A DNA stretch of 57,638 nucleotides, from contig BTVV01000032.1 of the NCBI GenBank assembly GCA_045863855.1, positions 1 to 57,638 on the forward strand, given 5' to 3'. The notes beneath the pieces are model-generated. The model was given only the letters and a program-made list of their open reading frames with translations, was not told the DNA's origin and searched no databases. Shown piece after piece: positions 4,232-26,901 of the stretch. The stretch comes from Planctomycetota bacterium. GTDB taxonomy: Bacteria > Planctomycetota > SZUA-567 > H5-PLA8. The translations under genes were made by a program, and so were the position numbers. How positions within the stretch are numbered: the stretch's first letter is position 1; every line of letters starts with the position of its first letter.

Positions 4232-7200
4232 TTACGGCGCAGCGATGGGCAGAGCCGGGTCGCCCAGCAGGCATTGGCCGTAGGCTTGATCGAAAATGGC
4301 CGCGGCTTCCGGATCGCCTTTGCGTTGCAAGAGCTGACCTTGCTTCCAAACCTCCGCCTGCGCGCGTTGCAGCGCTTCACCCCAAGTTCGTCCCGGCCGG
4401 ACCTCGCGGAAGAATGCACGGTCGAACTGAATCAGCGCATGCGGCGTCGTATAGCCCGAGGAACCGATGGAAGCCGCGATGCCGCCCTGCGCCTGGGTCA
4501 GCAGTTGCTCGGCCAGGGTGGCTAGAATCGCTTCGTCGTGGAGGAAGTAATTGAAGGTACAGGTGGCCGTGACCAGAACGCAGTTGCCCGTCCAGGCGGC
4601 GGCTTTGGCCGCGTTAAGCACGTTCTCTTTGGAGAGCTGCGAGCTGGCGCCGTGGCCGACGAACACGATGAGGTCCGTCCCGCCGTTGGCGGCCGTCTGC
4701 ATGGCCGTGGTCACTTCCGCGGCCGTGGAATGCGTGATACCCAAATACACTTTGTCCCAGTTCAGCGCCGGCGCGGCATTTTGAATTTGCTCGCAGCCCA
4801 ACTCGAAGTGGCCGGCTTCCGCGTCGTTACGATCGGCGACCAGCAGGCCCTGACCTCCGCTGTCGCCCTGCATGGGCGTGAAGTCGAGCGTGCGCTGTAC
4901 GGCCACATCCAATTCGGCGCTGGTGTTAACCGGAAAGCGTCCGACGGCGAGCTGCGGCCCGCGGCCGAAATCGCCGTAACGCGAATCGGCCGGCAACTCG
5001 GCAAAGCTGCTGGAAGAACTCAACACCGTGGGGCAGAGCGGATCGATCCCCGCCGGCGCCACGCGGTCGCGATAGTCGTGGGTCGTACGGCCCACGAGAC
5101 AAAGGAAGCGCAGGGAGCCGCGATTCGACGCGGCGGCGCGATAAATCCCGGCCGGACCGAAGCGTCCGTATCCGTAAGTGTCGAACAGGCGCTGCTGATC
5201 GACGAAGCTCGCCACAAGCCCTTCTTGATTGCGGCGCTCGATCAGCGGCGCGACGGAGGCCGCAAACGCCTGGGGCCCAACGGCGAGATACTTCAGCCCC
5301 TTCGGGAGCGGCTCCAGCCTGGCGGTGCTAAGCGCAACGGGGGCGGACTCGGCTCCGCTGGGGACCACCAAATACCCGTCGCCTTTGCCGGTTGGCTGAG
5401 CCACGAACCGCGCATGGAACGATCCGTCGAGTTGCTCGACCGCTTCGTACGGCACCAGCTTGGGTTTGGCGGGAACGCGCGCATCCACGACCCAAAGTTG
5501 TCCGGTCGTGAAGCCACGCAATTCGACCAGCCCGTTTACTCCGCCGGTGATCGCGACCGGCCCCGGTCCAAGCAGTGCCTTGCGATAATCGATCTCGATG
5601 CCGTAGAGGAACGAAAGCTGCGTCTCGACCCCGGCCAGTACGGGCGTTACCAGTTCCACCGTGTTGGGCGTCGACTCGTTAAGCAGGCCGGCCGGAATCT
5701 CCCAAGTCAGACGCAACATCCGTTCGGCGCCTTCCCATTGCGCCACGCCCAGCGGCGTGCCGTTCAGGGTCACCTGCAGCTCATGATCGGGGTCGGCGTC
5801 GTCGTCGAACGATTGGCTGTACACGACGACGGATAGTGTCGCGGCGGCGGCCGTCGCGTGAGGCGTCGCGAGCGCGAACGAATGGGTGCTGCCACCGGTC
5901 AGGAACTTATTGGAGAAGTAGGGCCTGAACGTGCGCGGCTTGCGGTTGAACTGAAAGTAAACCTCGTGAAATTCAAGCTCGGCATGACCGTCGGCTACGG
6001 TCGCGGGCGTCTGAGCGCTTTGAAACAGTCCGCGCGCCTGAAGCACCTTTCCGGTGGACGTACGACCGGCAATGGCCTCCAGGAAGAACGCGTCGCGCTC
6101 GGTGTACGCGTCGGTATACCCCGTTGCGTACAGTGCCAGCGCCCCGGTGTCCGCGTCGAGCGCCAGTGGGCGATACGGGCGGCCTTCGTACCAGACGCGC
6201 AGGTGCTCCGCAGAATACCCGAGCGGCAGGCTGGCGGGAGGAATCAGAACCACGCCCCGTCCTTGCGTCACCGCTTTGGCCACGTCCTTCGGCCGGTTGG
6301 AAGGCGGCACGAAACGACCGCCGAACGGCTCCGACGCATATGCCGGAAGATCGGTCACCGTTTGCGCGACTGCTCGAGCGGAAACGGCCGGCGCAAGATC
6401 CGGCTCTTCGTAGGCCGCTTCTTGAGTTTCGTGCGCGTTCGTCCGCGGGATCGCCAAATCCGAGATGCGCGCTCGGCTGAGCGTCTCGCGCGCGGCCGCC
6501 AGGCGCGTGAGCGCTCGATCTCCCTGATACGATCGGAAACCGCGCTCGATGCGATCCATCCACGCGTCCAAGCCTTCGGCGGTGGCCGAAGCCGTGTCTT
6601 CCGCGTTCCGCGTTACCTGCGGCGAAGCCTGCGCAAAGCGTTCCCGCTTCCCGTCCAAGCCGATCGTCTCGAGGGCATAGACGTACGTGCCGGGCGGGGC
6701 AAGGTCCAGCCAACGGTACGTGCGCGGCGCCGGGTTGCTGAGGCGCCCGGCCACCGGCTGCTCGGTTACGCGTTCCCAGCCCGACCGCGCCAAACCTTCG
6801 TCTTCGAAGAGCACCGCTTGGGGCAACGCGCGCTCCTCCTGACCCGCAGCGTTCGGATCGCACGTGCGCCGCCAAAGATGAAAACCGAGATTCTCGATCT
6901 CCGAGGCCACTCGCCATTCCACGAGGATTCCGCCGGCGTCGGCCCGAGCCTCGAGGCTCGTGATCGAAACCGGCAGCGTTCCGCCATTCATGTGAATAAT
7001 CGACTTGCTGTTGCCCTGAACGAGCACCTCGCCAATAGAAAGCGTGCCCGCGTTCAAGAAGACTTCCGCGTTTTGCTGCAGGTAAAAGGTTCCGTCCGTG
7101 CGGACGAGCCCGCCGTTGATGATCATGTCGGAATTGTTATCGACCGTGAAGTCGCCCACCGAGATGAACGTGCCGGAGGAGATTGTAAAGAGCGAGTTAT

Positions 7201-7732
7201 TGGAGCCCAGTGTGGTAGTCCCGCCAATCAAAACATTGCCGCTGAGCATGCGCATGACGCCATTCACGCCAAGGGTGAAGTTCCCTCCCACCGAAATGGT
7301 GTTGGTTCCCGTGCCGGCCAGCGCGAATCCCGGAGTCGTCGAACCGTTCACCACCCAGTTTCCGGTGACGGTCACATGGTTGTTCAGCGTCATCGTGCCC
7401 AGATAATTACTCATGGTCAGTGCGGCCAGATTGACGGGCACATTGACTACGACACTTCTGTTGTTGTTACTGAATGTGACGCTATCGCCGCTGGCGGGCA
7501 CCTGCCCGCCCACCCAATTGGCGGCGGTGCTCCAATTGGCGTTCGCGCCGGCGCCGCTCCAGGCAATGGTGGCCGCCCAGGCCGCATCTCCCGCGAGCAG
7601 TACGCTAAGTGTAAGCAGAAAGACTGTGGCGAATCGTGCGCGCGGCATCCGGGCCGGGCGTTCCGGATCGCCGGCTTGTGGAGCGGGGGGCTCCGCGGCG
7701 CCGCGGCCGGACTCGAGAACGTGATTGATCAT
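4232..7732 (-). CDS. Secreted C25 (gingipain-family) cysteine peptidase with N-terminal beta-helix-like passenger region
   Basis: Signal peptide ending AAWA (alternative start ATG 7648). WSGAGANANWSTAANW motif, Gly/Asn/Thr beta-helix repeats and an LPVSITSLEA...VEWRVASEIENLGFHLWR Ig-like module. C-terminal C25 motifs: LAVGRFPV, FVGHG (His), ATCTFNYF (Cys), LLGDPAL. Confidence 0.8.
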   Translation of the reverse strand: MINHVLESGRGAAEPPAPQAGDPERPARMPRARFATVFLLTLSVLLAGDAAWAATIAWSGAGANANWSTAANWVGGQVPASGDSVTFSNNNRSVVVNVPVNLAALTMSNYLGTMTLNNHVTVTGNWVVNGSTTPGFALAGTGTNTISVGGNFTLGVNGVMRMLSGNVLIGGTTTLGSNNSLFTISSGTFISVGDFTVDNNSDMIINGGLVRTDGTFYLQQNAEVFLNAGTLSIGEVLVQGNSKSIIHMNGGTLPVSITSLEARADAGGILVEWRVASEIENLGFHLWRRTCDPNAAGQEERALPQAVLFEDEGLARSGWERVTEQPVAGRLSNPAPRTYRWLDLAPPGTYVYALETIGLDGKRERFAQASPQVTRNAEDTASATAEGLDAWMDRIERGFRSYQGDRALTRLAAARETLSRARISDLAIPRTNAHETQEAAYEEPDLAPAVSARAVAQTVTDLPAYASEPFGGRFVPPSNRPKDVAKAVTQGRGVVLIPPASLPLGYSAEHLRVWYEGRPYRPLALDADTGALALYATGYTDAYTERDAFFLEAIAGRTSTGKVLQARGLFQSAQTPATVADGHAELEFHEVYFQFNRKPRTFRPYFSNKFLTGGSTHSFALATPHATAAAATLSVVVYSQSFDDDADPDHELQVTLNGTPLGVAQWEGAERMLRLTWEIPAGLLNESTPNTVELVTPVLAGVETQLSFLYGIEIDYRKALLGPGPVAITGGVNGLVELRGFTTGQLWVVDARVPAKPKLVPYEAVEQLDGSFHARFVAQPTGKGDGYLVVPSGAESAPVALSTARLEPLPKGLKYLAVGPQAFAASVAPLIERRNQEGLVASFVDQQRLFDTYGYGRFGPAGIYRAAASNRGSLRFLCLVGRTTHDYRDRVAPAGIDPLCPTVLSSSSSFAELPADSRYGDFGRGPQLAVGRFPVNTSAELDVAVQRTLDFTPMQGDSGGQGLLVADRNDAEAGHFELGCEQIQNAAPALNWDKVYLGITHSTAAEVTTAMQTAANGGTDLIVFVGHGASSQLSKENVLNAAKAAAWTGNCVLVTATCTFNYFLHDEAILATLAEQLLTQAQGGIAASIGSSGYTTPHALIQFDRAFFREVRPGRTWGEALQRAQAEVWKQGQLLQRKGDPEAAAIFDQAYGQCLLGDPALPIAAP

Positions 7733-7773
7733 ACGAGGAAGAGAAAGCCTCCGGATGCGGGTCGTGCGGCCGG

Positions 7774-9159
7774 TTAGCGCTTGACCAGAGACAGCGCGCT
7801 ATCCGCTTCGGCTTGCGCCGCCTGCCGCTCTTTGATGCGAAGGGTCTGATGCGCTTCGAAGACGGTTTTTCTCAGGTGGTCTTTCTCGCGCGTGCCCTGC
7901 TCGAGCCAGGACTTCCAGACGCCCGTGTAGGGCCCCAGATTACGCCCGTACGTTTCGACCAGGAGTCTGTGCGCCAGGCCGCGCACCGCGTAATCCCGGC
8001 TGTCCAGCAATTGCACCGCTTTAGGAACCAGGAGCAACTGCGGGCGGTCGACCAGTACGCGCAAGCAGGCGATCTGCACTCCCGGATCGCTCTCGCCCTG
8101 CAGCACGGTGGACAGCCGATCGATCGTAAGCGGGTTCTGGCTCAACCCTTCCACGCCCATGCGCCGAACTTCAGCAACCGGACTGATCAGCGCTTCGGAC
8201 AACATCATATGGTCGCCTTGCCCCGGCATGCGGACCAGAGCGGTAAGGTAGGGGACGAGATCTTCGCCGCGCTTGTCGCGCGCGATCCCGTCAAACAACT
8301 CGCGTATGCGTATGCGCAGCTTGTCGTTCGTGTCCAGCGCGACGAGCACGGCGGCGGCGCCTTGGCGGTCTTCCCCGCGTGCGCTCTGTAGCGCCGCGAA
8401 GGCCGGCTCCAGGTCAACGGGCTCGGCCGATTTCGCAAGCACGGCCCATAGCGCCGTTCGAAAGGCGGTATGGTCGGTCTGCGCCAGCTTCTCGCGCGCG
8501 AACGCTGCGGCGTCCGGCCCCCCCAAACGGCCTAAGGCATCCAGCAGCATGAGCTGAATGCGCGGCTCTTCCCGCTCGTATCGCGCCAGGATCGGGCGCA
8601 CGGCCCCGGTCGCATTCAGACGCGCCGCCGCGTCCGCCAGCCAAGTCACGGCCTCGGGTCCGCTGGACTCGACGAGCGCCGGTAAGCGCGGCGCGGCTTT
8701 GTCGCCCAGCGCGACGACGGCATCGAGCGCGGCGCGGCGTTCCGGCAATGAATTGCTGACGGTGAGGATCTCGGTGAGCTTATTCAAGCGTGCGATCGCT
8801 TCTTCCGGCGTAGCCACCGGCATGCGCAGTTCGGGCGGCAGGGCTTTTGTATCCGGCGCGTCGGCGTGCGGCGCGTTCGTTCCCGGCGCTCCGGTTTCCG
8901 CGGGCCGGGGCGGCACGTTCCACGCGGGGGTAGCTTGAGCCGCGGGCGCGGCAGGAGATGCGGACGCAGGCGAGGGGGCCGCCGCCGGAGCAGGCGCAGC
9001 CGAGCCGCCGGGCCAGAATGCGTATCCCAGCGCGCCGAGCAGCAGCAGCGAGCCGCCCGCCAGCGAAAGTCCGGAGGCTCCGCGACCGCCAGCCGCGGCG
9101 GACGCAGGCGCCGCGGAGCCGGGGCGAGCAGCCTTGTTCTTCTTGGGAAGGATGTACAC
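7774..9159 (-). CDS. Membrane-anchored HEAT-repeat protein
   Basis: GTG start with GGAG RBS. Basic N-terminus, single TM helix, Pro/Ala linker, then helical repeats (ERRAALDAVVALG, LLDALGRLGG, EVRRMGVEGL, LLDSRDYAVRGLAHRLL). Confidence 0.75.
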   Translation of the reverse strand: MYILPKKNKAARPGSAAPASAAAGGRGASGLSLAGGSLLLLGALGYAFWPGGSAAPAPAAAPSPASASPAAPAAQATPAWNVPPRPAETGAPGTNAPHADAPDTKALPPELRMPVATPEEAIARLNKLTEILTVSNSLPERRAALDAVVALGDKAAPRLPALVESSGPEAVTWLADAAARLNATGAVRPILARYEREEPRIQLMLLDALGRLGGPDAAAFAREKLAQTDHTAFRTALWAVLAKSAEPVDLEPAFAALQSARGEDRQGAAAVLVALDTNDKLRIRIRELFDGIARDKRGEDLVPYLTALVRMPGQGDHMMLSEALISPVAEVRRMGVEGLSQNPLTIDRLSTVLQGESDPGVQIACLRVLVDRPQLLLVPKAVQLLDSRDYAVRGLAHRLLVETYGRNLGPYTGVWKSWLEQGTREKDHLRKTVFEAHQTLRIKERQAAQAEADSALSLVKR

Positions 9160-9213
9160 GCGTCATCTCCAAAAGGAGGAGGGCCTAAACGGCCCTCGCG
9201 GCTTCGGTCGGAC

Positions 9214-9247
9214 AAAAAGGCGGCTCGCGGTCGCCCCGCGAGCCGCC
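9214..9247 (-). terminator. Intrinsic terminator after the pilin operon
   Basis: 12-bp stem GGCGGCTCGCGG/CCGCGAGCCGCC with a 5-nt loop, followed by T5 on the minus strand just after the 9256 stop. Confidence 0.8.
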
Positions 9248-9255
9248 CGATGGAT

Positions 9256-10350
9256 TTACTGGTATGGCTGTACGACGCGCCACGAACGGACTTGCACCGA
9301 GGACTTCGATTCGACTGTCACGTTCGTCTTGTTCAGCGCATCGAAGGAGTACTTGATGTCCGAGGTCCCGCGCGTGCGGTAGAACTCCTTGCCGTAGATC
9401 GCGCCCGGGTTGCTCGACGAATTGGCATGGTTGCGCAGGTACAACATCAAGCCGCCGGTGACGTGGTTGCTGTTACCGCCGCCGCGAATGTCCACCAGCG
9501 CGTCGCTGCCCGTCGGGCGCTTGTTGTACACCACCATCACCAGCCCGACCCACTTGTACCCGCCCGACATGATGAACTGCGCCTGATCCGGGTTGTCGAT
9601 CTCGACCACCAGAATCCCGTAGCTCGTGCCGTTCCCGGACAGATGCAGCGTATTTTCGGTGAAGGCTCCGTTCTGGGTGCTCCCCTTCGCGTAGACGATC
9701 TTGAAGTCGTCGGGCGTGCCAATGTGGTTCCCCGATCCGGTCAGTGAAATCACCGTCCCGTCGGTCGTGGATACCGCGTCCGAGGTACTGGTACCCAAGT
9801 CAATGTTGTACTGCGCCAGGTTTTTTACCGACTGCACGAAGGCTTCCAGATCCTGGTACTTCTTGGGCAGGTCGTTGCCGACGCGGCCCTGGATGTTCGC
9901 ATCGTTGTGCTGCCCGGAGATGGTAATCCCGGTCTGACCGCTGCCGGAACCGTTCACCCAGGAACCGTCCACGTCGGCCACGCCCACCGCGTTGGGCGCC
10001 TTGTTCGTCTGCGCGTCACTGGGCTTCTCGGTGCCGTCAATGGCGTGGTCGTCGCCGTCAATGGTGTTGGGTGAGCCGTTAATCTGCAGTTCAATTCCGT
10101 TGGTGGCCGGATCGAAAGTGTCCTGGGTCTGGGGACCGGTGGAGCCGCTACCACCACCACCGCCGCCGCCACCACCACCGCCGGAACTTCCGCCACCGGT
10201 GCTGGTGCTGCTGGATCCACCGCCGCCACCGCTACCGCCACCGCTGCTCTTGCCGCCCGAGGCGCCCCAGACGTCATTCGCGCCCAAACCCAGCAAGAGT
10301 CCCGCCAGGAGGAGCAGCCAGCCTGCGTTCGACCGTTCTCCGCGTTTCAT
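9256..10350 (-). CDS. Secreted Gly-rich protein resembling the C-terminal beta domain of long PilX-like proteins
   Basis: ATG 10350 with AAGGAG RBS. Sec signal peptide, ~40 aa Gly/Ser linker, then a beta-rich domain (LHLSGNGTSYGILVV...YKWVGLVMV...IKYSFDAL...VRSWR). Confidence 0.7.
   Translation of the reverse strand: MKRGERSNAGWLLLLAGLLLGLGANDVWGASGGKSSGGGSGGGGGSSSTSTGGGSSGGGGGGGGGGGSGSTGPQTQDTFDPATNGIELQINGSPNTIDGDDHAIDGTEKPSDAQTNKAPNAVGVADVDGSWVNGSGSGQTGITISGQHNDANIQGRVGNDLPKKYQDLEAFVQSVKNLAQYNIDLGTSTSDAVSTTDGTVISLTGSGNHIGTPDDFKIVYAKGSTQNGAFTENTLHLSGNGTSYGILVVEIDNPDQAQFIMSGGYKWVGLVMVVYNKRPTGSDALVDIRGGGNSNHVTGGLMLYLRNHANSSSNPGAIYGKEFYRTRGTSDIKYSFDALNKTNVTVESKSSVQVRSWRVVQPYQ
10141..10250. 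repeat. (CCA/CCG)n trinucleotide tract encoding a poly-Gly/Ser linker
   Basis: ccaccaccaccgccgccgccaccaccaccgccg and similar; encodes a run of 11 consecutive Gly. Confidence 0.85.
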
Positions 10351-10398
10351 GTTTCTTCTCCTTATCCCCGTCAATCCAAGTGCGCTCCGGATCCACCG

Positions 10399-11133
10399 TC
10401 AGGGTTGGAACGGAGCAATCTGCAGTTCCAGCGCCGCGTCGAGCGTGATCGAGGTGCTGTTGCTGGTGATGACGCGCCGCGCGATCGCCTCCACCGTGAT
10501 GAACTTCCCGTCGGGCGTCGCAGGGTTGCTGAACCCCGTTGAGTAGATCGTGTACCACTCCCGTTCGGCTGGATCGTCCACACCGTTCACGCCGTCGTTG
10601 TCGATGCCGTCGTCCTCCCAGCGGTGCGCGTAGGTGAAGTAACGCACATCGCCAAAGACCTTCGAATGCGTGTAAAAATCGAACTCCGCCGACTCGGGCC
10701 GGGGCTTCGAGATCACGCTTCCGTTCTTCTGAGTAAATTGATTGGGCCAAGCCGCGGTTTTGGGACGGCGCAGGTCCGTGGACGGATAGAAATTGATGCC
10801 GTCCAATCCGACGTGCCAGCCTCCGGCGGCGACCTCGCCGGAGTCCGGACGGCCGTTGGAATTTCCGTCGCCGTTCCAGCCGATGCCGATCGTCCCCGTG
10901 CCCCCCGTATTGATGCTGCGAATCGCCGCGTCCAGCCCCGCTTCGGCGGCCTCGAACGCCTTGATGTCTTCCGAATCCGCCTCGGTACGTTCCGAGCGCG
11001 ACTGCATCTCCAGCAGCAACGAAGTGGCCAGCCCGGTAAGCAGCATCACGATCACCATCGCCACGATCAGCGCGGTGCCCCGCGGCGGACGGCCCGCGGT
11101 CTGAAGCCAAAGCTTTCTCAGGTTCCCGTTCAC
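10399..11133 (-). CDS. PilX/GspK-like minor pilin (N-terminal pilin domain only)
   Basis: Class III leader RG|TALIVAMVIV lacking Glu+5 (typical of PilX/GspK), AFEAAEAGLDAAI, YTIYSTG. GTG start with GAGGAG RBS. Confidence 0.8.
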   Translation of the reverse strand: MNGNLRKLWLQTAGRPPRGTALIVAMVIVMLLTGLATSLLLEMQSRSERTEADSEDIKAFEAAEAGLDAAIRSINTGGTGTIGIGWNGDGNSNGRPDSGEVAAGGWHVGLDGINFYPSTDLRRPKTAAWPNQFTQKNGSVISKPRPESAEFDFYTHSKVFGDVRYFTYAHRWEDDGIDNDGVNGVDDPAEREWYTIYSTGFSNPATPDGKFITVEAIARRVITSNSTSITLDAALELQIAPFQP

Positions 11134-11164
11134 GAACGCACTCCTCTCGAATGCCCTAACCGCG

Positions 11165-11914
11165 CTACGGAGCCGGCGGAATCTGATTACGCAAGAAAAC
11201 TTGGCTGCTGCACTGAACCAGGTGCGGGAAGCGGTCTTCCGAGACCGTCAGCAGCCAGAGGTTGATTTCCAGGATCGAGCCGTTGTTCTGCAGGCGGAAG
11301 AGCTTCCCGCTTTCGGCGCCGGCGCTCGAAACGATGGGCTGCCCCCAGTTGGCAGCGCCCGCTACCTGAATCACGTTCGTCACGCCCACCAGCCGCGGCA
11401 CGTCGCCCGAGAGCGAGGTGTTGCGTTCGATGTAGCCCATGTCGTAGCTGTCGCTCTTGTCCCCGTCGCCGTTCAGATCGATCCCCATCGTCCCTTCCGC
11501 CAAAACCTCCCGTGGAACGAAACGGAAGGTCATCGTTCCGCTGTTCTCCATGCCGTCGGTCGAGGCGCCGTAGCGCAGGAAGCCCGGATTGGATTCCGAG
11601 GAATCCTGCAACACCGTGCCGCGCCCGTTCGAATCCACGATCGGCACGAAAAAATCCACCTGCGTGTTGCCCGTACCGGACACGATCCCCAACTGCGCCG
11701 CCGAAATCAGATCCTCGGTCAGGAGCTTCAGCGTGCGTTCGCCCTTGACCTCCACGTTGCTTCGGGTCACGCGTTCGGAGACCGAACGCGTCGAGTGCGC
11801 GCTGATCTGGAAGGCCAGCCCCACCAGCAACGCCATCAGGCCGGTCGAGACGACCACTTCCAGCAGCGTCATGCCGCGCGCGCGCAGGCGGCGCGAGGGA
11901 ATGGCTAGGTTCAT
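11165..11914 (-). CDS. Type IV prepilin-like protein (PilW-like minor pilin)
   Basis: RARG|MTLLEVVVS N-methylation motif; C-terminal SQVFLRN typical of PilW/PulJ. ATGA overlap with the upstream gene. Confidence 0.85.
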   Translation of the reverse strand: MNLAIPSRRLRARGMTLLEVVVSTGLMALLVGLAFQISAHSTRSVSERVTRSNVEVKGERTLKLLTEDLISAAQLGIVSGTGNTQVDFFVPIVDSNGRGTVLQDSSESNPGFLRYGASTDGMENSGTMTFRFVPREVLAEGTMGIDLNGDGDKSDSYDMGYIERNTSLSGDVPRLVGVTNVIQVAGAANWGQPIVSSAGAESGKLFRLQNNGSILEINLWLLTVSEDRFPHLVQCSSQVFLRNQIPPAP

Positions 11915-12612
11915 AGGTTCCCCAATCGGTCGGTCAGGAATGTCACGAGCTGAATGCGGGTTTCCATCCCCGCTTGACTACGCCAGCGCACCACCACCAC
12001 CACCGGCACGAAGCGCAGCAAGTTCAGGCTGTTCATCAGGTTGTCCGTAATGGAAGCCGAACCCGAAAGGTCCATCGGGAATGGATGCACGGGCGACGAA
12101 ACGGTCAGGACATCGTCGTAGCGCCCGTTTCCGTTCAGATCGACCGGGAAATCCAGGTCCCCGTCGCCGTCCACGTCGCCGAAAACAGACTCGTCCGGCG
12201 ATTCCATCCCGATCACTTGCACGCCCAGTTCCTGCGGCACCTTGTCGCCGTCCCCGCCATCCACCACGATCGCGCCCAACCGTTGGTTAGGGGCATTGGG
12301 GCCCGCCAGGTTCACCGGTTCGACGTAATTGTGATACGCCCAGACCGGGCGCGACTCGGGCGAATCGGTGGCCGGGTTCCACGTGTCGTTCTCGAACGGA
12401 GCGGCGCGCATACGATTGATCACGCCCTTGGCCGCGTACATCGCAATGGACTCTTCGCGCGAAAGCGTCGCCAGCATCTCCGAGGTGATGAAGAGGCTGT
12501 ATACGCCCATGATCGCCGTAGTCAGCACCACCATCGCCAAGCTGACCTCCAGCAAGGTCAAGCCCTTGGGATGCCGGCTCGGCTTTCCGAAGGATCTGAA
12601 TCCCCAGCCCAT
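11911..12612 (-). CDS. Type IV prepilin-like protein (PilV-like minor pilin)
   Basis: PKG|LTLLEVSLAMVVL motif; C-terminal VVVVVRW...IQLVTFL. ATG 12612 follows GAGGAG. Confidence 0.85.
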   Translation of the reverse strand: MGWGFRSFGKPSRHPKGLTLLEVSLAMVVLTTAIMGVYSLFITSEMLATLSREESIAMYAAKGVINRMRAAPFENDTWNPATDSPESRPVWAYHNYVEPVNLAGPNAPNQRLGAIVVDGGDGDKVPQELGVQVIGMESPDESVFGDVDGDGDLDFPVDLNGNGRYDDVLTVSSPVHPFPMDLSGSASITDNLMNSLNLLRFVPVVVVVRWRSQAGMETRIQLVTFLTDRLGNL

Positions 12613-12716
12613 CTGCGTACTCCTCGCAATCAAAGAAGGGCCTTATGAGCCCGCTTCCCGTTTCAAAACAATGCCCTAGGGCGGAAATCGGACAGGGTCC
12701 GGTTTCTCATCATGCA

Positions 12717-12744
12717 CAACGCGCAGAACGGGGTGGTGTTGGCG
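12717..12744 (-). promoter_or_regulatory. Candidate ECF-sigma promoter for the pilin operon
   Basis: Minus strand reads CGCCAAC-N16-CGTTG, fitting the generic ECF AAC...CGT pattern. Lies ~105 nt before the pilV-like start and downstream of a terminator. Confidence 0.35.
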
Positions 12745-12854
12745 AAATCCCAAACGTTAAAATAACGGTTAAAGTCAATACTGGTAATGTGTTATGGAAT
12801 ACATGGCGAATCGTTCAAAAAAATACACCAACGCCAAAGGATTGCACATGAACG

Positions 12855-12882
12855 AAAACCGCCTGCGCAAGGCAGGCGGTTT
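12855..12882 (-). terminator. Intrinsic terminator after the anti-sigma gene
   Basis: AAACCGCCTGC-gcaag-GCAGGCGGTTT hairpin with a T-run on the minus strand, ~30 nt after the 12911 stop. Confidence 0.8.
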
Positions 12883-12910
12883 AGGGGCTCGTGGTTGAGC
12901 CAAGTTATTC

Positions 12911-14941
12911 TTAACCCTTACCGGGCTTATCCGGTTTGTCTGGCTTTTCCGGTTTATCGGGCTTGTCCGGTTTATCGGGTTGATCCGGTACCTCAGGTTT
13001 ATCGGGCTTGTCCGGCTTATCGGGTTGATCCGGTTTATCCGGCTTATCGGGCCTGTCCGGCTTGTCGGGCTTATCCGGACTCTCGGGCTTATCCGGCGCG
13101 CTGCCGCGGTCGGGGCGATCCGGTCCGCCTACGTCCGATCGGCCGCTCTCCGGCTTCTCGCTCGGCTTGGGCGACTCGTGCTTTTCGCTCGGACCTTCCG
13201 AGGAATCGTTCTCCGGGGCTCCGTGTATGGCTTCGCTCTTTCCGGGCCCACCGGGGCTCTTCACCGATTGAACGCCCTTGCCGAGCACCTCTCCGCCATT
13301 AGGGCCCTTCCCGGCATTTCCCGAAGACGGATTCGCAACGCCACCCTTGCCTAAGGCCGCGGCACCCGACTTCCCATGGGCCTTACTCGAAGCATCGCCC
13401 GAGTTTGCCTTACCCTGCGCAGATGGCCCGGATGCTTCTTTACCTTGGGCGTGGGCCGGCGGGCCGATTCCATTGGCCTTGCCGTTACCAGATCCGTTTT
13501 CGTTCCCGCCGGCCTGGGCGTGTTCCGGCGGGCCGCCGGCCGTGGCGCTCTCGCCGCCTTGGCCGGATCCTTGCCCTTCCGGTCCGGTATTCTGCGCGCT
13601 GTCGGATCCTTCTTGCGCATCCGTCTTGGGCAGCAGGGATTCGGGCGCAGGTGAAGAATCCTGAATCGGCAGGCGCTCCTGCAACTCGGGAGCGGCAGGA
13701 TTCAGTTGCTCTTGCCCATGGGCCGAACTGGGCAGGAGATCCTGGGTTCTGGCATTGCTCTGAAGCGCGTCCGAGATCGAACCGACGGCCACTTCGCGCT
13801 GCGCCACGGGCAAGCGGCTTAACTCGGCCTGCAGCGCGTTCAAGCGTGCCTGATCCTGTTTGAGCAGCTCGGCGTATTGCGGCTCGTTAACCACCGCGTC
13901 CTTGTGCCGGACCGCGATGGATTGCAAACCTTCGGTCGAGAGCGTGGTCAGCATGCGCTGCAACCGTACCGAATCGGCGGGCGGCAGGTGCGGGCGGTGC
14001 ACGGCCAAATCCAGGCGGTTGGCCAACCCATTGAGCAGTTCGGCGCGCGCCAGCGGATCGACGACCGAACGCATGCTGAGGGCGCCTTCGGCCAGTTGGG
14101 CCGTAAGGGTCAGCCCCGGCGCGGGCGGCGCCACCAGCGCCGGTTCGAGCGTGCGGCCTTCCAGCAGATCGCACGCATATGCCGTGATTGCGATGGCCGC
14201 GGCCAGCGTGCTGTCGGAGTTTTCGTCGAGCGCATCCAGCGCGTGGCGGCGAGAACGGAAAGCGCCGGCGCGGTCGAGCAGGATCTGTCCTTCCTGGATA
14301 GCCGGGAGCAGTCCGAAGTGGAACGTGCGCAGGTACGCCACCGCCACGACATGCCGTTCCGTTTCTGAATTGCGGTAGAAGTACAACGCTCCTACAAGGT
14401 CGTCGGCCAGGCGCTCGTGGGTCTGCGCCATCTCGGGGCCGGGCGCGTACTGCGCGGCGGAAAGCAGATCCTGTTGAAGCGCCTCGAGGATGGCGAGCTG
14501 ATCGCCGAAACGCTGCGTGAAGAGCGGCGAGACTTTCACGACCGGTTGCACCGGCGGGGCGCTCTGCGACATCCAAATGCCCCACCCGCCCGCCGCCAGC
14601 ATGGCCAAACCCATCCAAATCGTCATGGGCCGGCGATACCAACTGGGCTTGCTCAGCGCTTTCTTCTTGGTCTGTTCGCGAGCTTGGCGCTTGCGCGCTT
14701 CGGCGGCGGGTACGGCCAGCACCAGACCCAGCAGGCGGCGCTTGCCCGTCTCGTTCGGCTCGACCGGCAACGCCGCGTAGGCGCGTTCGATCAACTGGGT
14801 GCGCGCCAACTCGCGGCGCGCCACAGGATCCTGACGCAGCAGGCGCTCGAAATCGGTGAGTTCTTCGCCGTCCAACTCGTCGTCGAGGGCGCGGTTGAGC
14901 AGCACCTCGGTGCGGTAGCGGTGGGAGGAATGGTCGCTCAT
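12911..14941 (-). CDS. Transmembrane anti-sigma factor with helical periplasmic domain and low-complexity (PDK)n tail
   Basis: N-terminal anti-sigma-domain-like LLNRALDDELDGEELTDFERLLRQDPVARREL (no His/Cys zinc ligands), TM helix near aa 106-124, ATGA overlap with the ECF sigma gene. Confidence 0.8.
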   Translation of the reverse strand: MSDHSSHRYRTEVLLNRALDDELDGEELTDFERLLRQDPVARRELARTQLIERAYAALPVEPNETGKRRLLGLVLAVPAAEARKRQAREQTKKKALSKPSWYRRPMTIWMGLAMLAAGGWGIWMSQSAPPVQPVVKVSPLFTQRFGDQLAILEALQQDLLSAAQYAPGPEMAQTHERLADDLVGALYFYRNSETERHVVAVAYLRTFHFGLLPAIQEGQILLDRAGAFRSRRHALDALDENSDSTLAAAIAITAYACDLLEGRTLEPALVAPPAPGLTLTAQLAEGALSMRSVVDPLARAELLNGLANRLDLAVHRPHLPPADSVRLQRMLTTLSTEGLQSIAVRHKDAVVNEPQYAELLKQDQARLNALQAELSRLPVAQREVAVGSISDALQSNARTQDLLPSSAHGQEQLNPAAPELQERLPIQDSSPAPESLLPKTDAQEGSDSAQNTGPEGQGSGQGGESATAGGPPEHAQAGGNENGSGNGKANGIGPPAHAQGKEASGPSAQGKANSGDASSKAHGKSGAAALGKGGVANPSSGNAGKGPNGGEVLGKGVQSVKSPGGPGKSEAIHGAPENDSSEGPSEKHESPKPSEKPESGRSDVGGPDRPDRGSAPDKPESPDKPDKPDRPDKPDKPDQPDKPDKPDKPEVPDQPDKPDKPDKPEKPDKPDKPGKG
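12920..13097. repeat. Degenerate 9-bp tandem repeat encoding (P-D/E-K/Q/R)n
   Basis: Plus strand units such as cttatccgg / tttatcggg / cttgtccgg. Protein: PDKPESPDKPDKPDRPDKPDKPDQPDKPDKPDKPEVPDQPDKPDKPDKPEKPDKPDKP. Confidence 0.9.
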
Positions 14942-15552
14942 TCGTCCGCTCCTCCCGCTTCCGCTTCCAATTCGACTTCCCGGCCGCGAGAAGTGCTCTC
15001 CAGGTCGAACTTTCGGCCCAGCTTCTGACGCAGGATGCGCCGCGCTTCGTACATGTGCCAGCGCGCCGTACTCTCCTTCACGTCCAGAACCTGAGCGATC
15101 TCCGTATAGTCCATACGTTCGACCGTGCGCAGGACCATCGCGATCTGCTGCTCCTTACTCAACTCTTGCACGGCCTGCCACAACGCCTGCACCAACTCGC
15201 GCTCGATCAGGACCGTCTCGGGACCTTCGCCAACCTTGACCGGACCCTGGTTCGACATGTCCAGGACCACATCGCGCGCCCGGGGCGACTTGCGGAGGTC
15301 CAGCACCAAGTTGGTCGCGATACGCAGCAACCATGCCTTAAACTGTCCTTCGGGCTTGTAGTTGGAAATATTCCTGAAGGCGCGCAGGAATGTCTCCTGC
15401 GCGATGTCTTCGGCGTCCGACTTCCCAAGCGTCAGGCGGTAGGCATACGAATATATGCGATCCCAATACGCCTCCACCAACGCTTCGGCGGCCGAAGCGT
15501 CTCCTTGAAGGTAGGCATCGACGAGTTCGTCGTCGCTGGGCGGAGGATTCAC
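14938..15552 (-). CDS. ECF-family sigma-70 RNA polymerase sigma factor
   Basis: SDDELV...GDASAAEALV, DAEDIAQETFLRAF, FKAWLLRIATN, region 4 YTEIAQVLDVKESTARWHMYEAR. GTG 15552 preceded by AAGGA; TATAAT at 15570-15565. Confidence 0.93.
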   Translation of the reverse strand: MNPPPSDDELVDAYLQGDASAAEALVEAYWDRIYSYAYRLTLGKSDAEDIAQETFLRAFRNISNYKPEGQFKAWLLRIATNLVLDLRKSPRARDVVLDMSNQGPVKVGEGPETVLIERELVQALWQAVQELSKEQQIAMVLRTVERMDYTEIAQVLDVKESTARWHMYEARRILRQKLGRKFDLESTSRGREVELEAEAGGADE

Positions 15553-15855
15553 AGGCTTCCTTATATTATAGACTGGGTTTGGCTCACCTAACGCACGTCG
15601 TGATCCGATCAAAATGGTCTTAGCAAATGGTTGGCGCAAAAGACACTGAAATTCATTCACTATCTTAACTACTTGATGTGCATAGCTTATTTAAGTTACC
15701 CGCCCATACTTGCGATCTAAAACCGGGACGTGCAGCACACGTGCGGCCAATTTTTCTTCCTCTGCGGAGTAGTTTTTAGCGCCTATTCGTCGCACGAAGC
15801 ATCTGCCGGAATGGCTTCGATGCCGCATCCCACGACGTTGCGGAGCGGTATAGCA

Positions 15856-17529
15856 TCAGAAATTGAAGGTGAATCCGGCGTCGATCTGGTGTCGGCCGTA
15901 CTCCTGGTCGGATCGCGTGGAGTCCTGTGCTTCGTACGTATAGCCCCAATTAAAAGAGAAGTGCTTCCAGAGCTGGTAATCGAGCCTCGCTTCGCCGCGC
16001 AGGCGCTGGTCGGTGCGCTGCGGCGCCGTCGCGGACTGGCTTTCGGGGTAGTCGTCGCGCCGGTAGGTCCCTTCCAGTTGGCCGTACAGATCGCGCCAGA
16101 TCTTCGCTCGATACATCAGCCGGACGCGCTGCGTGAACCGCTGCGAGACATCGGCTTGGCTCCAGCGGTAATCGAGGTTCCCGCGCAAGCGCAGCTCGTG
16201 GTCCCAGAGCGGCAGCGTGCGCCGCCAATCCCAAAAGACCCGCGCGCGCGTGCCGGTGAGACCCTCGGATGCGCGGAAGTAGTCGGGTTCGCCGTAGCTC
16301 GCGCCGAAACGCAAACGGTGCGGCCCGCTGCGGTACTCGGCGCTCGCCTCGACAAAGTGCTCGCGCGAATAAGGCTGGTAGTCGAACTGCGCGTACTTGA
16401 AGCCGTACTTCAACTCCATCGTACGAAACGGTCCTGCCTGAAGAAACCGCAGCGAGATCGTGCCGGTGTCTTCGAAGTAATCGTTGTCATGCACACGCGG
16501 GTAATGCAGGCCGAAATGCTCGCCGCCTACCCAAAACTCGAAGCGCTCCCGACGCAACAGGCGCCCTTCGCCCAGCGCGTAGATCTGCGTGAAGGTATCG
16601 CGTTCGTTGAGCACCTCGCTTTCGTCGCCGGTGGCGATGATGCCCGTATCGAATCCTTCGAGCACATCCAGATAGAGCCGGAAAGGCCGGCCGGCGATCC
16701 GGTCGGCCGCCTTAGCCGCCTCGACCGACCACTCGCCCGAGCCGCCGCGGCCCAAGTCGGCGTAAGCGGACTCGGCTTCGCGGGAACGGCCCAATCCTTC
16801 CAGGCAGGCGGCCTCGTAGTACCGCGCGGCATCGGCCCGGGCGGAGCTTTTCTCGCGAACGAATTGAAGGTGCGGAAGCGCTTCGGCGAAGCGCTTGGCT
16901 TTGTACAAACTGCGCGCCAGCATCCAGCGCCGATACGGATCGTCCGGGAGCGCCTCGGCCAGGCGTGACCAGGCGTCCGCGGCTTCGGCATATTGGCCCG
17001 TATCGTAGTAGCAGTGCGCGACGAACTCCCGCGCCGAAGCGCCCCAATCGTCCTCGCGTTCGGCAAGCGCCTTGAACGCCGGCAGAGCTTCGGCCGCGCG
17101 ATCCTGATTGTATTGTGCCGAGGCGAGCCCGAACTGCGCCGCTACCAGATCCGCGTCGTGCTTCAGCGCCTCGCGGAAAGCCTGTTCCGCCTCCGCATGG
17201 CGCTTGAGCTTGGCCAACGTGCGTCCCAATCGATGCTGGATATCGGCCGGCGTGTGGCCCCGTTCGGCGGCTTTGCGCAACGCGTCGAGAGCTTCCTCGT
17301 ACTCGGCGGAGTCGTACAGCGCACGCCCCAGCCGATACCAGACCGACTCGGCTTGCGGGTACTTTTCGGCCAGCTTGCGCCAATACGGAAGAGCGTCGGC
17401 GTCGTGGGCCAGTTCGGCCTCGCGCCAAAGCGGATCCTGTTCGGGAAGCTCCTGCGCGCAAAGTGGCAAGCCGCATGCCAGCGCGAGACCGAGCACGAGC
17501 CAGCCCATAAATCCAAAATCAACGCGCAT
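15856..17529 (-). CDS. TPR-repeat outer-membrane beta-barrel protein (Slam/DUF560-like architecture)
   Basis: Signal peptide, about 6 TPRs (VWYRLGRALYDSAEYEEALDALRKA and similar), amphipathic beta strands, C-terminal aromatic beta-signal AGFTFNF. Start ATG 17529. Confidence 0.75.
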   Translation of the reverse strand: MRVDFGFMGWLVLGLALACGLPLCAQELPEQDPLWREAELAHDADALPYWRKLAEKYPQAESVWYRLGRALYDSAEYEEALDALRKAAERGHTPADIQHRLGRTLAKLKRHAEAEQAFREALKHDADLVAAQFGLASAQYNQDRAAEALPAFKALAEREDDWGASAREFVAHCYYDTGQYAEAADAWSRLAEALPDDPYRRWMLARSLYKAKRFAEALPHLQFVREKSSARADAARYYEAACLEGLGRSREAESAYADLGRGGSGEWSVEAAKAADRIAGRPFRLYLDVLEGFDTGIIATGDESEVLNERDTFTQIYALGEGRLLRRERFEFWVGGEHFGLHYPRVHDNDYFEDTGTISLRFLQAGPFRTMELKYGFKYAQFDYQPYSREHFVEASAEYRSGPHRLRFGASYGEPDYFRASEGLTGTRARVFWDWRRTLPLWDHELRLRGNLDYRWSQADVSQRFTQRVRLMYRAKIWRDLYGQLEGTYRRDDYPESQSATAPQRTDQRLRGEARLDYQLWKHFSFNWGYTYEAQDSTRSDQEYGRHQIDAGFTFNF

Positions 17530-18318: not shown

Positions 18319-19776
18319 ATGCATCAGGTAGGGTCATGCAGGTTCCGAACCCTGCGCGGAAGTTTGGTGCTGGCGGCCGCCCTTTCGCTGCTTGCCGCGC
18401 ATGCGGGCGAAGCCCCTAAAGAAGCGTATGCCGATCCCAAAGAGGCGAAGCAGGAACTGCGTGAACAGTTAAAGGCGCCTCCGGCGCCCAAGCCGCCGCC
18501 CGAACTGGTTCCGATGCCGGCCTTTACCTGGGCCTCCGAAAAGCTCAAGAAGCTTCCCTTGGGTTCCACACGCTTCAGCTTCGGGATCGAGCACCGCACG
18601 CGAGTGGAAGTCTGGGACAATAAGTTTATCGGCGGCGGCGCGACGATCACCAATGGGTTCACGCTCTTCCGGCACCGCGTCTGGATGGATGCCGACCTCC
18701 ACGAGCACGTGCGCGTCTTCGGCATGTTCCAGGATGCGCACAAAGACGGCGACATCGCGCCGCAGGCGCGCGCGCACGAGGACCGCGCAGACCTGCTGGA
18801 AGGCTACCTGGATCTGCGCAAGCTTTTCGGCCAGGACTTGACTTTGCGCGTGGGGCGCCAACCTCTTGTCTACGGCCGGCAGCGCTTGGTCGGCGCATTC
18901 GAATGGTCGAACCCCGGACGCCGATTCGACGCGCTCAAACTTATGTGGATGAGCCCGGACCAGACCTGGACGGCCGACGCCTTCGCCAGCAAGGTGGTCG
19001 AGATAGACGCCATTCATCCCGACGAGATGCATTCGAGCGAAGAGTTTTACGGCTTGTATGCGACCAACGCGAGTTTGAAGCCGCATCGCTTCGACCTGTA
19101 CGCGCTGTTTCGCTCCAACGAGATCAAAGAGCGCGACCAGGAGATCGTTACGCTCGGTTTCCGCGCCTACGGAAAAGGGCTCTTCGGCGGGCTCGACTAC
19201 GAAGTCGAGGCCGCCGGACAGTTCGGCAAGACGCCCGTTGCCGCCGACGAACTCGATCACCGCGCGGCGGCGGCGCACGCCGAAGTCGGCTGGACCTTTG
19301 CCCCGGCATGGAAGCCGCGCCTCATGGCGGAATTCAATTACGCCAGCGGCGACGAGGATCCCACAGACGGCGATAATCAGACCTTCAACAATCTCTTCCC
19401 CACCAACCATCTCCATTACGGCTATGCCGACTTCTTCAACTGGTCCAACCAGGTCAGCGTGGCGGCGGGTTTCGAAGCGCAGCCGCTCAGCGGGTTGACC
19501 GTGTGGTCCAAAGCGTACTGGTTCCGCCTCGCCGAAGAGAAAGACGCCTGGCGTAACGCCGGCGGCGTGGTGCTGGCACGCGATACGACCGGACGCGCCG
19601 GCCGGGAAGTGGGCTTCGAATTTGACGTCGGCGCCACCGTGAACGTCAACCGCCACCTGAACGTAGAACTAGGCTATGCGCTGTTCGACGGCGGCAAATT
19701 CACCGGCGCCCGGCGTCCCCCGGGCCAAGGCGAAACCGCGCAATTCTTCTGGGCGCAAGCGGTGCTAAAATTCTAA
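18319..19776 (+). CDS. Alginate export (AlgE-like) family outer-membrane beta-barrel protein
   Basis: GGAGG RBS and signal peptide. LRVGRQPLVYGRQRLVGAFEWSN, RRFDA, YASGDEDPTDGDNQTFNNLFPTNH, C-terminal AVLKF. Confidence 0.88.
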   Translation: MHQVGSCRFRTLRGSLVLAAALSLLAAHAGEAPKEAYADPKEAKQELREQLKAPPAPKPPPELVPMPAFTWASEKLKKLPLGSTRFSFGIEHRTRVEVWDNKFIGGGATITNGFTLFRHRVWMDADLHEHVRVFGMFQDAHKDGDIAPQARAHEDRADLLEGYLDLRKLFGQDLTLRVGRQPLVYGRQRLVGAFEWSNPGRRFDALKLMWMSPDQTWTADAFASKVVEIDAIHPDEMHSSEEFYGLYATNASLKPHRFDLYALFRSNEIKERDQEIVTLGFRAYGKGLFGGLDYEVEAAGQFGKTPVAADELDHRAAAAHAEVGWTFAPAWKPRLMAEFNYASGDEDPTDGDNQTFNNLFPTNHLHYGYADFFNWSNQVSVAAGFEAQPLSGLTVWSKAYWFRLAEEKDAWRNAGGVVLARDTTGRAGREVGFEFDVGATVNVNRHLNVELGYALFDGGKFTGARRPPGQGETAQFFWAQAVLKF

Positions 19777-26733: not shown

Positions 26734-26901
26734 CGTATAAGCCCCCATCGATTCTTAAGTTATGGAATTGACCAACTCCGCCCCATACCGGCGGCGCTTC
26801 CATTGGACACTCGGCTGCACGTGCGGTTACGACAAATTTATGCCTTCCGTGCCGGGTCAGGAGTCTAAGATCGCGGCACAGGTAATGGAAGGGTACGGCC
26901 G

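Follow-up and report, generated by a model that had tools for sequence, protein, structure and literature searches.

We analysed a stretch of 57,638 nucleotides from a Planctomycetota bacterium (contig BTVV01000032.1 of assembly GCA_045863855.1; hereafter, the window), whose minus strand harbors nine co-oriented open reading frames (ORFs), all of them located where a preliminary description of the same DNA had placed them. The evidence supports reading five of these genes (pilV, pilW, pilX, secX, and a gene for a HEAT-repeat protein) as an accessory, exchangeable type IV pilus tip cassette served by a core machine encoded elsewhere. Judged from their sequences, pilX and secX are two halves of one PilX/PilK-type minor pilin. 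The conserved unit consists of eight genes, i.e., the cassette and an upstream trio coding for an outer-membrane barrel, an extracytoplasmic function (ECF) sigma factor, and an anti-sigma-like protein; the ninth gene, encoding a C25-type protease, is left out of it. To the reading as a whole (an accessory tip cassette, with secX locked on PilX in place of the PilY1 tail, transcribed by the upstream ECF sigma factor) we assign a probability of about 0.65. The members of the cassette are the following:

11911..12612, minus strand: pilV, a PilV/PilI-type minor pilin with a class III leader and Glu+5 (sequence, NCBIfam)
11165..11914, minus strand: pilW, a PilW/PilJ-type minor pilin with a class III leader and Glu+5 (sequence, NCBIfam)
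10399..11133, minus strand: pilX, the putative N-terminal half of the split PilX/PilK, with a pilin helix lacking Glu+5, a small sheet, and a C-terminal tail predicted to enter secX
9256..10350, minus strand: secX, the putative C-terminal half of the split PilX, with a Sec-type signal, a Gly/Ser linker, a beta-rich domain, and a terminal SWR strand
7774..9159, minus strand: a membrane-anchored HEAT-repeat protein (HEAT_2 match), the constant last gene of the cassette

The secX product (364 residues) begins with a Sec-type signal, after which a low-complexity linker leads into a conserved domain of about 290 residues, while pilX codes for a protein with a PilK-type leader that stops after a short tail. 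All 11 split secX proteins share an S/A-W-R ending, with a hydrophobic residue at most two places after it. Probing Pfam and NCBIfam did not retrieve any family for secX, including the PilY1 propeller (PF05567), and its profile did not match any sequence of the PDB (best E 0.15); a single-sequence model of secX reached a predicted local distance difference test (pLDDT) value of 41 and was not usable for a fold search. The relationship with pilX emerges from a fused protein of 620 residues (P0005), whose first half aligns with pilX (42% identity, E 6e-63) and whose second half aligns with secX (46%, E 6e-67), the two being joined by a low-complexity linker. Two further cases, P0028 and one in the genome G026, are likewise fused. 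The preliminary description had called secX a secreted PilX-C-like protein; it does carry a Sec-type signal and is related to PilX, and what had been missed is its status of a split-off half that is matched end to end in a fusion.

The secX profile matches 20 out of 401 genomes across the phylum. Among 16 distant stretches, belonging to 14 genomes, the match falls in a called pilin-led protein of 370–500 residues in 15 cases; in the remaining one (L225) the gene call is longer, and another reading gives 405 residues. A HEAT gene lies 3' of the match in at least five of these 16 stretches. A library-wide search with the same profile retrieved 191 matches, the composition being read among the 150 listed; by eye, the best 29 comprise 19 signal-peptide-led proteins without a pilin helix, nine fragments, and one fusion. 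More distant library matches are mostly pilin-led, and out of 14 fused proteins chosen, 6 reach the PilX_N cut-off. Counted automatically, fused forms make up 45 of the 107 long matches; this is an undercount, many of those missed being pilin-led by eye. At 42–46% identity, the family includes fused, long-linker fused, and split forms. Given that the fused form is found widely and the split form only locally, fission would be the more economical explanation. Two other arrangements were observed in the family: a secX frameshifted in its G-rich linker, representing either an assembly error or a phase variation (L001, 7336–8444), and tandem pairs of fused PilX-like genes within one cassette (L238, 6695–9582; L239, 4210–6765).

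The PilX–secX complex, modelled with PilX residues 18–225 (alignment A2) and secX, obtained a score of 0.87, versus 0.00 for the best of three controls; the mark set for this score is reached by 116 of 157 solved pairs and by 2 of 215 mismatched ones, a calibration that applies roughly here. The model runs agree in at least 67% of the contacts, and the pLDDT of the partner is at least 75. The confident interface embeds PilX residues 193–204 and 207–225, and secX residues 44–51, 225–235, and 276–286; in the best contacts, the PilX tail (214–222) sits between secX 46–50 and 227–233. The terminal strand of secX (276–286) would in turn pair with the last PilX strand (193–204), and the model supports a two-way strand swap that would hold secX on PilX.

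As shown in PMC13533445, PilC/PilY1 uses its last (approximately) ten residues to complete the sheet of PilK and to license assembly, while GspK and CpaL supply the terminal strand in cis; in PMC13711793, the PilC/PilY1 tail is described as a Trp, a charged residue or two, and finally a hydrophobic one. By analogy, secX probably takes the role of the PilY1 tail, though it has no propeller. In the mechanism that we propose, the tail of PilX would insert into secX, and the terminal strand of secX would complete the PilX sheet and, as in PilC/PilY1, might license PilV–PilW binding and pilus initiation. The HEAT-repeat protein, a candidate tip chaperone or adaptor, may hold or chaperone the tip in the periplasm; this is the weakest step of the scheme. 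In the ESM Atlas, the barrel and the HEAT-repeat protein retrieved generic TPR-barrel (TPR, tetratricopeptide repeat) and HEAT clusters only.

The composition and the conservation of the cassette are consistent with this reading. The three pilin-like genes show weak matches to PilV/GspI, GspJ, and GspK, with only TIGR02532 on pilV reaching its cut-off, and all of them code for class III leaders; Glu+5 is present in PilV and PilW and absent from PilX. We then searched 41 related genomes with the C25 module, the barrel, secX, the anti-sigma, and pilX, and mapped the neighbourhoods. Full-length pilX matches amount to 11, spread over 9 of the 41 genomes, and the order pilV-pilW-pilX-secX-HEAT is kept in 11/11 copies, with one small extra gene ahead of HEAT in the genome G007. 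The co-occurrence of the nine genes, which the preliminary description had proposed to check, was recovered in part: pilV to HEAT in 11/11 copies, the trio in 5/11, the C25 gene in 2/11, and all nine only in the window and in a sister locus. In G001, pilV and the tail of the anti-sigma gene appear frameshifted near their 3' ends (L147, 11770–12831 and 13158–15077).

None of the 36 ORFs of the window scanned for families matches a major pilin, PilB, PilC, PilQ, or PilY1, in agreement with the preliminary description, and a genome search for PilY1 gave no match, its control being silent as well. The core genes are found elsewhere in the host genome (6.9 Mb, 94% complete), as expected for the accessory tip set that had been postulated: four full PilB/GspE-like ATPases, seven PilT-family matches over the cut-off, four full secretins, two PilC-like genes, and two prepilin peptidases. 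Prepilin-motif ORFs number 37 in several clusters (at least one match is false). Other minor-pilin sets of this genome (C113, C180, C198, C33) include PilX-like proteins of 830–1,991 residues with tip domains in cis.

These data also bear on a different machine. The best NCBIfam matches of pilX and pilW are GspK and GspJ, respectively (both below cut-off), neither FimU/PilE nor PilY1 is encoded in the locus, and the secretins and the several PilB/GspE-like ATPases go together with many secreted giant proteins; all this could suit a pseudopilin tip for type II secretion, with secX as a substrate adaptor or a cargo rather than a retained adhesin. We regard this as unlikely, because the type II systems described in PMC13533445 supply the strand in cis and their payloads add no strand, because PilT-family genes are present in the genome, and because a rapid block exchange would fit an exposed, retained tip.

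The exchange of the block is suggested by the comparison with the sister locus (L001), which harbors the same nine genes in the same order (L001 and the stretch L113 of G002 have identical gene calls and were counted once). The barrel, the ECF, the anti-sigma, the C25, and two downstream genes are 94–99% identical between the two loci (94% for C25), with a divergence at four-fold sites of 0.14–0.20, whereas pilV, pilW, pilX, secX, and HEAT are 62–81% identical, with a divergence of 0.36–0.79. The edges are sharp: the divergence drops to 0.16 within pilV's first 60 codons, and to 0.06–0.11 past HEAT codon 360. Pooling the sites (from rounded values) gives 263/569 (0.46) for the block and 305/1748 (0.17) for the flanks. 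The corresponding region is:

8080..12430 (approximate), minus strand: raised silent divergence versus the sister, from about codon 60 of pilV to about codon 360 of HEAT

Since the raised divergence is silent and sharply bounded, replacement by recombination fits better than selection alone. The pilV–HEAT block was thus likely swapped between relatives, homologous recombination being the probable route, and the C25 gene lies outside it. No strain without the block was found in four sequencing runs, three of which are too fragmented to tell. The gene order itself is not an assembly artefact, because the sister locus shares it and a contig of another run (X3, covering 7577–15298) bridges the HEAT–C25 junction.

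The second part of the reading concerns the regulation of the cassette and relies on the following features:

15856..17529, minus strand: outer-membrane protein with a signal peptide, about seven TPRs, a predicted 14-strand barrel, and a C-terminal Phe (TPR families, AlphaFold2)
14938..15552, minus strand: ECF sigma factor (Sigma70_r2 and r4_2 over cut-off), with a likely GTG start at 15552; the ORF can be extended to 15660
12911..14941, minus strand: anti-sigma-like membrane protein of 676 residues, with a zf-HC2-type N-terminus, a conserved region of 400 residues, and a tail of Gly/Asn/His and D-K-P repeats
12718..12742, minus strand: candidate ECF promoter CCAAC-N16-CGTT, about 105–130 nucleotides 5' of pilV, with no other exact site in the window

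The trio lies directly 5' of 5/11 cassettes (window, sister, G001, G004, and G007), and is thus kept upstream in three genera despite an anti-sigma identity of 27–37%; in G013 it is found at a contig end. Orthologues of the ECF sigma factor, 53–99% identical and adjoining the same anti-sigma, occur in five other genomes, full-length anti-sigma orthologues in 6 of the 41, and the barrel is upstream of the ECF gene in 6 of 8 mapped orthologues. In the window, the ECF and anti-sigma genes overlap. The anti-sigma encoded here has lost the N-terminal Cys and matches neither FecR nor any other Pfam family, while zf-HC2 is over the cut-off in both orthologues tested (2/2). The membrane anchor and the long charged tail that had been attributed to it have different standing, in that the D-K-P repeat tail is present and only a weak transmembrane stretch is seen (hydropathy does not peak above 1.5 at residues 107–125). 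In other runs, the repeat tail carries in-frame insertions of 27 and 6 nucleotides (window positions 13053 and 13481), and its length varies among strains. The AlphaFold2 model of the barrel (about seven TPRs and 14 strands, pLDDT 85) matches the folds of OmpG (Z 20.0, root-mean-square deviation 3.2, 233 residues aligned) and CymA (Z 21.0, 4.0, 269 aligned).

AAC and CGT halves are typical of ECF promoters. The exact motif CCAAC-N16-CGTT stands before pilV in four of the five linked cassettes (window, sister, G001, and G004) and in none of the six unlinked ones (0/6), and it also precedes the ECF gene in four of six cases (G001, G004, G007, and G013); the spacers are unrelated between sites, except for the window–sister pair, and the chance expectation is about 0.002 per 450 nucleotides. 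No exact motif precedes HEAT or C25 in the window, nor is one present before pilV of G026, and a further one lies ahead of a small secreted gene in G007. The link between the ECF/anti-sigma pair and the cassette, already proposed in the preliminary description, is supported by its conservation in the five genomes and by the shared promoter-like motif, and the upstream ECF sigma factor likely transcribes the cassette from this site. In the proposed scheme, an envelope signal, perhaps passing through the TPR domain of the barrel to the periplasmic part of the anti-sigma, would free the ECF sigma factor, which would then read the motif ahead of pilV. Synteny alone prompts the guess that the barrel partners the anti-sigma as a sensor, a channel for the ECF unit being the other candidate role. 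According to PMC7826278, ECF sigma factors are often preceded by their own promoter.

In principle, the trio might instead represent a separate upstream unit, with a different sigma factor or regulator reading the motif, while the barrel would serve its own small secreted cargo in a type XI-like manner. Six of the 11 cassettes have no trio, some of them with sigma-54-like sites, a hairpin lies between the trio and the pilins, the genome gives 39 tblastn matches to the ECF, small secreted low-complexity proteins adjoin the barrels of G007 and G010, and TPRs plus 14 strands correspond to the Slam topology (PMC8406197). We nevertheless consider a separate trio quite unlikely: its position is kept across three genera at the low anti-sigma identity given above, the same motif with unrelated spacers precedes both the ECF gene and pilV, two other families (G026 and G097) likewise have ECF and anti-sigma-like genes ahead of their fused cassettes, and a DUF560 match is absent. 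On this last point, the barrel alone retrieved from Pfam (E ≤ 0.05) BBP2_2 over the cut-off and OMP_b-brl, and no DUF560 (PF04575); a genome search for DUF560 had no match, with its control silent as well, and Slam does not figure among the fold matches listed for the barrel, which does not exclude it.

Sigma-54-like sites, scored by their consensus, are strict in two unlinked cassettes and in G007, and loose in two more; those before pilV in L171, L174, and L152 suggest that the regulator may be swapped between lineages. Fused-PilX cassettes with such genes upstream lie at L177 (2174–7941) and L237 (7161–11111); in G026, the anti-sigma-like gene product is FecR-like by eye and has an SGSGSKK-repeat tail. 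Small secreted low-complexity proteins, rich in Lys/Asp/Gly or in R-P-E, are found beside the barrel or inside the cassette (L152, 14525–15082 and 6653–7312; L154, 16366–16701), and the gene at L152 14525–15082 has an ECF-type motif upstream.

Several points weigh against the reading of an ECF-controlled tip cassette. A complex test of this kind is one that the two parts of a split gene are prone to pass, and the score therefore measures likeness to the fused fold rather than binding; the PilX tail takes part in each of the 25 best contact pairs listed, whereas the secX strand is paired from residue lists only, and the pLDDT of PilX in the complex model is 55–64. The locus has no FimU/PilE-type gene, and either machine (pilus or type II secretion) could receive the tip. 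The recombination reading comes from one genome pair. As regards the regulation, the upstream regions of the six cassettes without the trio were mapped over 4.7–7 kb in five cases, while the G018 contig ends 0.7 kb upstream, and two of the eight barrel orthologues have no adjacent ECF. The motif was scored on the data in which it was found, and the genomes, being kin, do not count as independent (the pilV site comes from three lineages). Ahead of the ECF gene of the window and the sister it is degenerate, and only a near match precedes pilV of G007. Genome-wide it is not enriched, with 61 sites compared to 28–63 at other spacings (12 compared to 2–8 near gene starts), and in five genomes two of the five matches of an extended motif are unrelated to any cassette, the control giving two matches.

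The preliminary description had also drawn the C25 gene into the module:

4232..7732, minus strand: secreted C25 protein with a likely start at Met29, a passenger of about 200 residues, an LPV junction at residue 253, and a PorU-like module of about 900 residues

According to this idea, one inducible module of nine genes would display or export the protease via alternative pilins or via the barrel. The C25 gene does lie 41 nucleotides 3' of HEAT on the same strand, in both the window and the sister; in G001, a secreted protein of 1,218 residues, bearing PKD and sub-threshold metallopeptidase matches, is located about 680 nucleotides past HEAT and hints at a cargo slot; and no type IX secretion system (T9SS) gene for its export was found, SprA_N and Por_Secre_tail having no match in the genome, with silent controls and at the 94% completeness given above. 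The distribution of the family, however, speaks against it. C25 adjoins only the cassettes of the window and the sister, unrelated genes being found 3' of HEAT in the others, and out of 25 C25 ORFs whose downstream gene was mapped, only 2 come after a cassette; a PqqD-family gene lies 3' of seven (in one case below cut-off), with a further such case in G004. The relative closest to it (57%), that of G001, is a stand-alone gene. The C25 module, from the LPV junction onward, matches in 20 of the 41 genomes, where it ends frames of about 1,000 to 10,439 codons; in G015 alone, near-full copies number at least 22 (22 of 49 candidates scored), and the four genomes of its genus, g10 (79–91% complete), have 2–29 matches each without orthologues of split pilX, barrel, or anti-sigma. 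Moreover, C25 has no SWR tail, and its silent divergence from the sister is 0.18, while that of pilV–HEAT is 0.36–0.79. Being present beside only 2/11 cassettes, not preceded by a motif, not included in the exchanged block, and part of a family that is abundant where neither cassette nor barrel was found, the C25 gene is a lineage-specific neighbour, likely outside the unit, and a nine-gene module appears very unlikely to us.

The label of gingipain-like had to be abandoned as well. Peptidase_C25 covers residues 815–1162 (E 5e-44), with His1027 and Cys1058 as its dyad, and the protein ends four residues past this domain. In the search of PDB sequences (E ≤ 0.1), only PorU (6za2) was retrieved (E 6e-5), with the His and Cys motifs aligned, and no gingipain; the PorU family NF033707 matches with E 1e-32, at 112.5 bits compared to a cut-off of 420. 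A scan of contigs gave one full-length relative among 80 loci, the others matching mostly the N-terminal passenger. We also considered C25 as a trans-acting sortase for proteins with an LPV junction, and rejected it, since a profile of 28 junctions finds only the two C25 genes of the genome, which would fit an action in cis. Likewise rejected as a sign of ECF control was an extended motif near a giant C25-type ORF of G004, which falls within a coding region in a polysaccharide-type locus.

Giant secreted proteins ending with the C25 module after a conserved LPV/TPV junction form a family (window 4232–7732; L081, 12294–17165; L115, L116, L120, L121, L123, L124, L126, L129, and L130), some of whose genes are followed by kinase-like or radical SAM genes. 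Many C25-module proteins end with a short G-x-F tail (L087, L089, L090, L093, L095, L096, L119–L121, L129, and L130), which is rare in the host genome (two unrelated genes), and three (L091, L094, and L127) carry an extra terminal domain of about 150 residues; these are possible export or anchoring signals.

As for the rest of the locus, two hairpins correspond to the terminators of the preliminary description:

9218..9248, minus strand: hairpin of 13 pairs, accompanied by a T-run, in the secX–HEAT gap (hairpin scan)
12856..12882, minus strand: terminator-like hairpin 3' of the anti-sigma gene (hairpin scan)

Both are present, although only the 13-pair one stands out, because terminator-like sites number 20 in the window and 20.1 in shuffles; hairpin-like inverted repeats are visible by eye at the secX–HEAT gap in most relatives printed. 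A sigma-70 promoter scan gave 0 sites. The window also harbors a bacterial alpha-2-macroglobulin of 2,006 residues (20728–26748), a protease-trapping protein encoded 13 kb away from the C25 gene; an alginate-export-family porin (18319–19776), divergent from the barrel gene; and, downstream of C25 (994–3971), two genes without a Pfam match that we take to be flotillin-like and YqiJ-like.

Among known systems, FecA-FecR-FecI is an outer-membrane protein encoded with an ECF sigma factor and a membrane anti-sigma, as in the trio; unlike FecA, the barrel is not a TonB-dependent receptor, and the anti-sigma is putatively of the zf-HC2 type, without a FecR match in the window. TPRs and a 14-strand barrel are shared with the Slam/DUF560 type XI system (PMC8406197), although DUF560 does not match, nor does any TbpB-type cargo among the 36 ORFs of the window. 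The C25 domain resembles that of PorU, the T9SS sortase, in its His-Cys dyad; it differs in being far below the cut-off, in having no T9SS tail, and in ending variable passengers in cis. It differs also from the gingipains RgpB and Kgp, as only Peptidase_C25 is over the cut-off, without propeptide or C25_C domains. The idea of protease display is removed from the locus, and what is left is a concrete prediction of an ECF sigma factor, its promoter, and its target, together with a candidate new outer-membrane partner for ECF signalling.

The alternative minor pilin/pilY1 clusters of Myxococcus xanthus are similar in that several tip clusters, each regulated differently, are served by a core machine encoded elsewhere; in the accessible part of PMC13190605, however, they have a true PilY1 and the regulators FruA, MrpC, and HsfA, with no adjacent ECF, anti-sigma, or barrel. 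The closest arrangement in gene order is PilV-PilW-PilX-PilY1 (PilI-J-K-PilC) of type IVa pili and MshD-O-P-Q, which, according to PMC13533445 and PMC13711793, also have Glu+5 in PilV/PilW and none in PilX. Like PilY1/PilC, secX is a Sec-type secreted product of the fourth gene, with a W-charged-hydrophobic end predicted to contact the PilX sheet; unlike PilY1, it counts 364 residues, has no beta-propeller match, and would itself be the C-terminal half of PilX. Furthermore, PilX is here predicted to return its own tail to secX, a constant HEAT gene is present, and FimU/PilE is not.

The fused relatives (370–620 residues), with a sheet, an insert, and their own terminal strand, resemble the cis-type PilK proteins described in PMC13533445, i.e., GspK, Caulobacter CpaL, and the competence PilK of Thermus and Vibrio, which have a large insertion; here, instead, the split of the gene falls between the sheet and the inserted domain, with a separate signal peptide for the second half. 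An open-access literature search, with subscription papers outside its scope, found no paper on minor pilins in Planctomycetota. According to PMC13533445, pilus initiation is licensed by a single beta-strand, coming either from PilK or from a large PilY1-type adhesin, and the conversion of a cis into a trans strand donor could be studied here with a pair of about 500 residues. One might go further and see in the locus an undescribed signalling unit (TPR/14-strand barrel, zinc-type anti-sigma, and ECF) switching to an exchanged tip with a two-way-swapped, propeller-less adhesin and a HEAT chaperone, a living intermediate to the PilY1/MshQ donors; this is possible, though we lean against it in so complete a form. 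The features of the tip complex that are likely new are the split PilK, the propeller-less trans donor, and the constant HEAT gene, with a likely dedicated ECF sigma factor and a likely block exchange. The nearest precedent for the splitting itself is PilA-N/PilA-C of Geobacter (PMC10710030), where one pilin is also made from two adjacent genes; there it is the major pilin that is cut after the helix, whereas here an apical minor pilin would be cut after the sheet.

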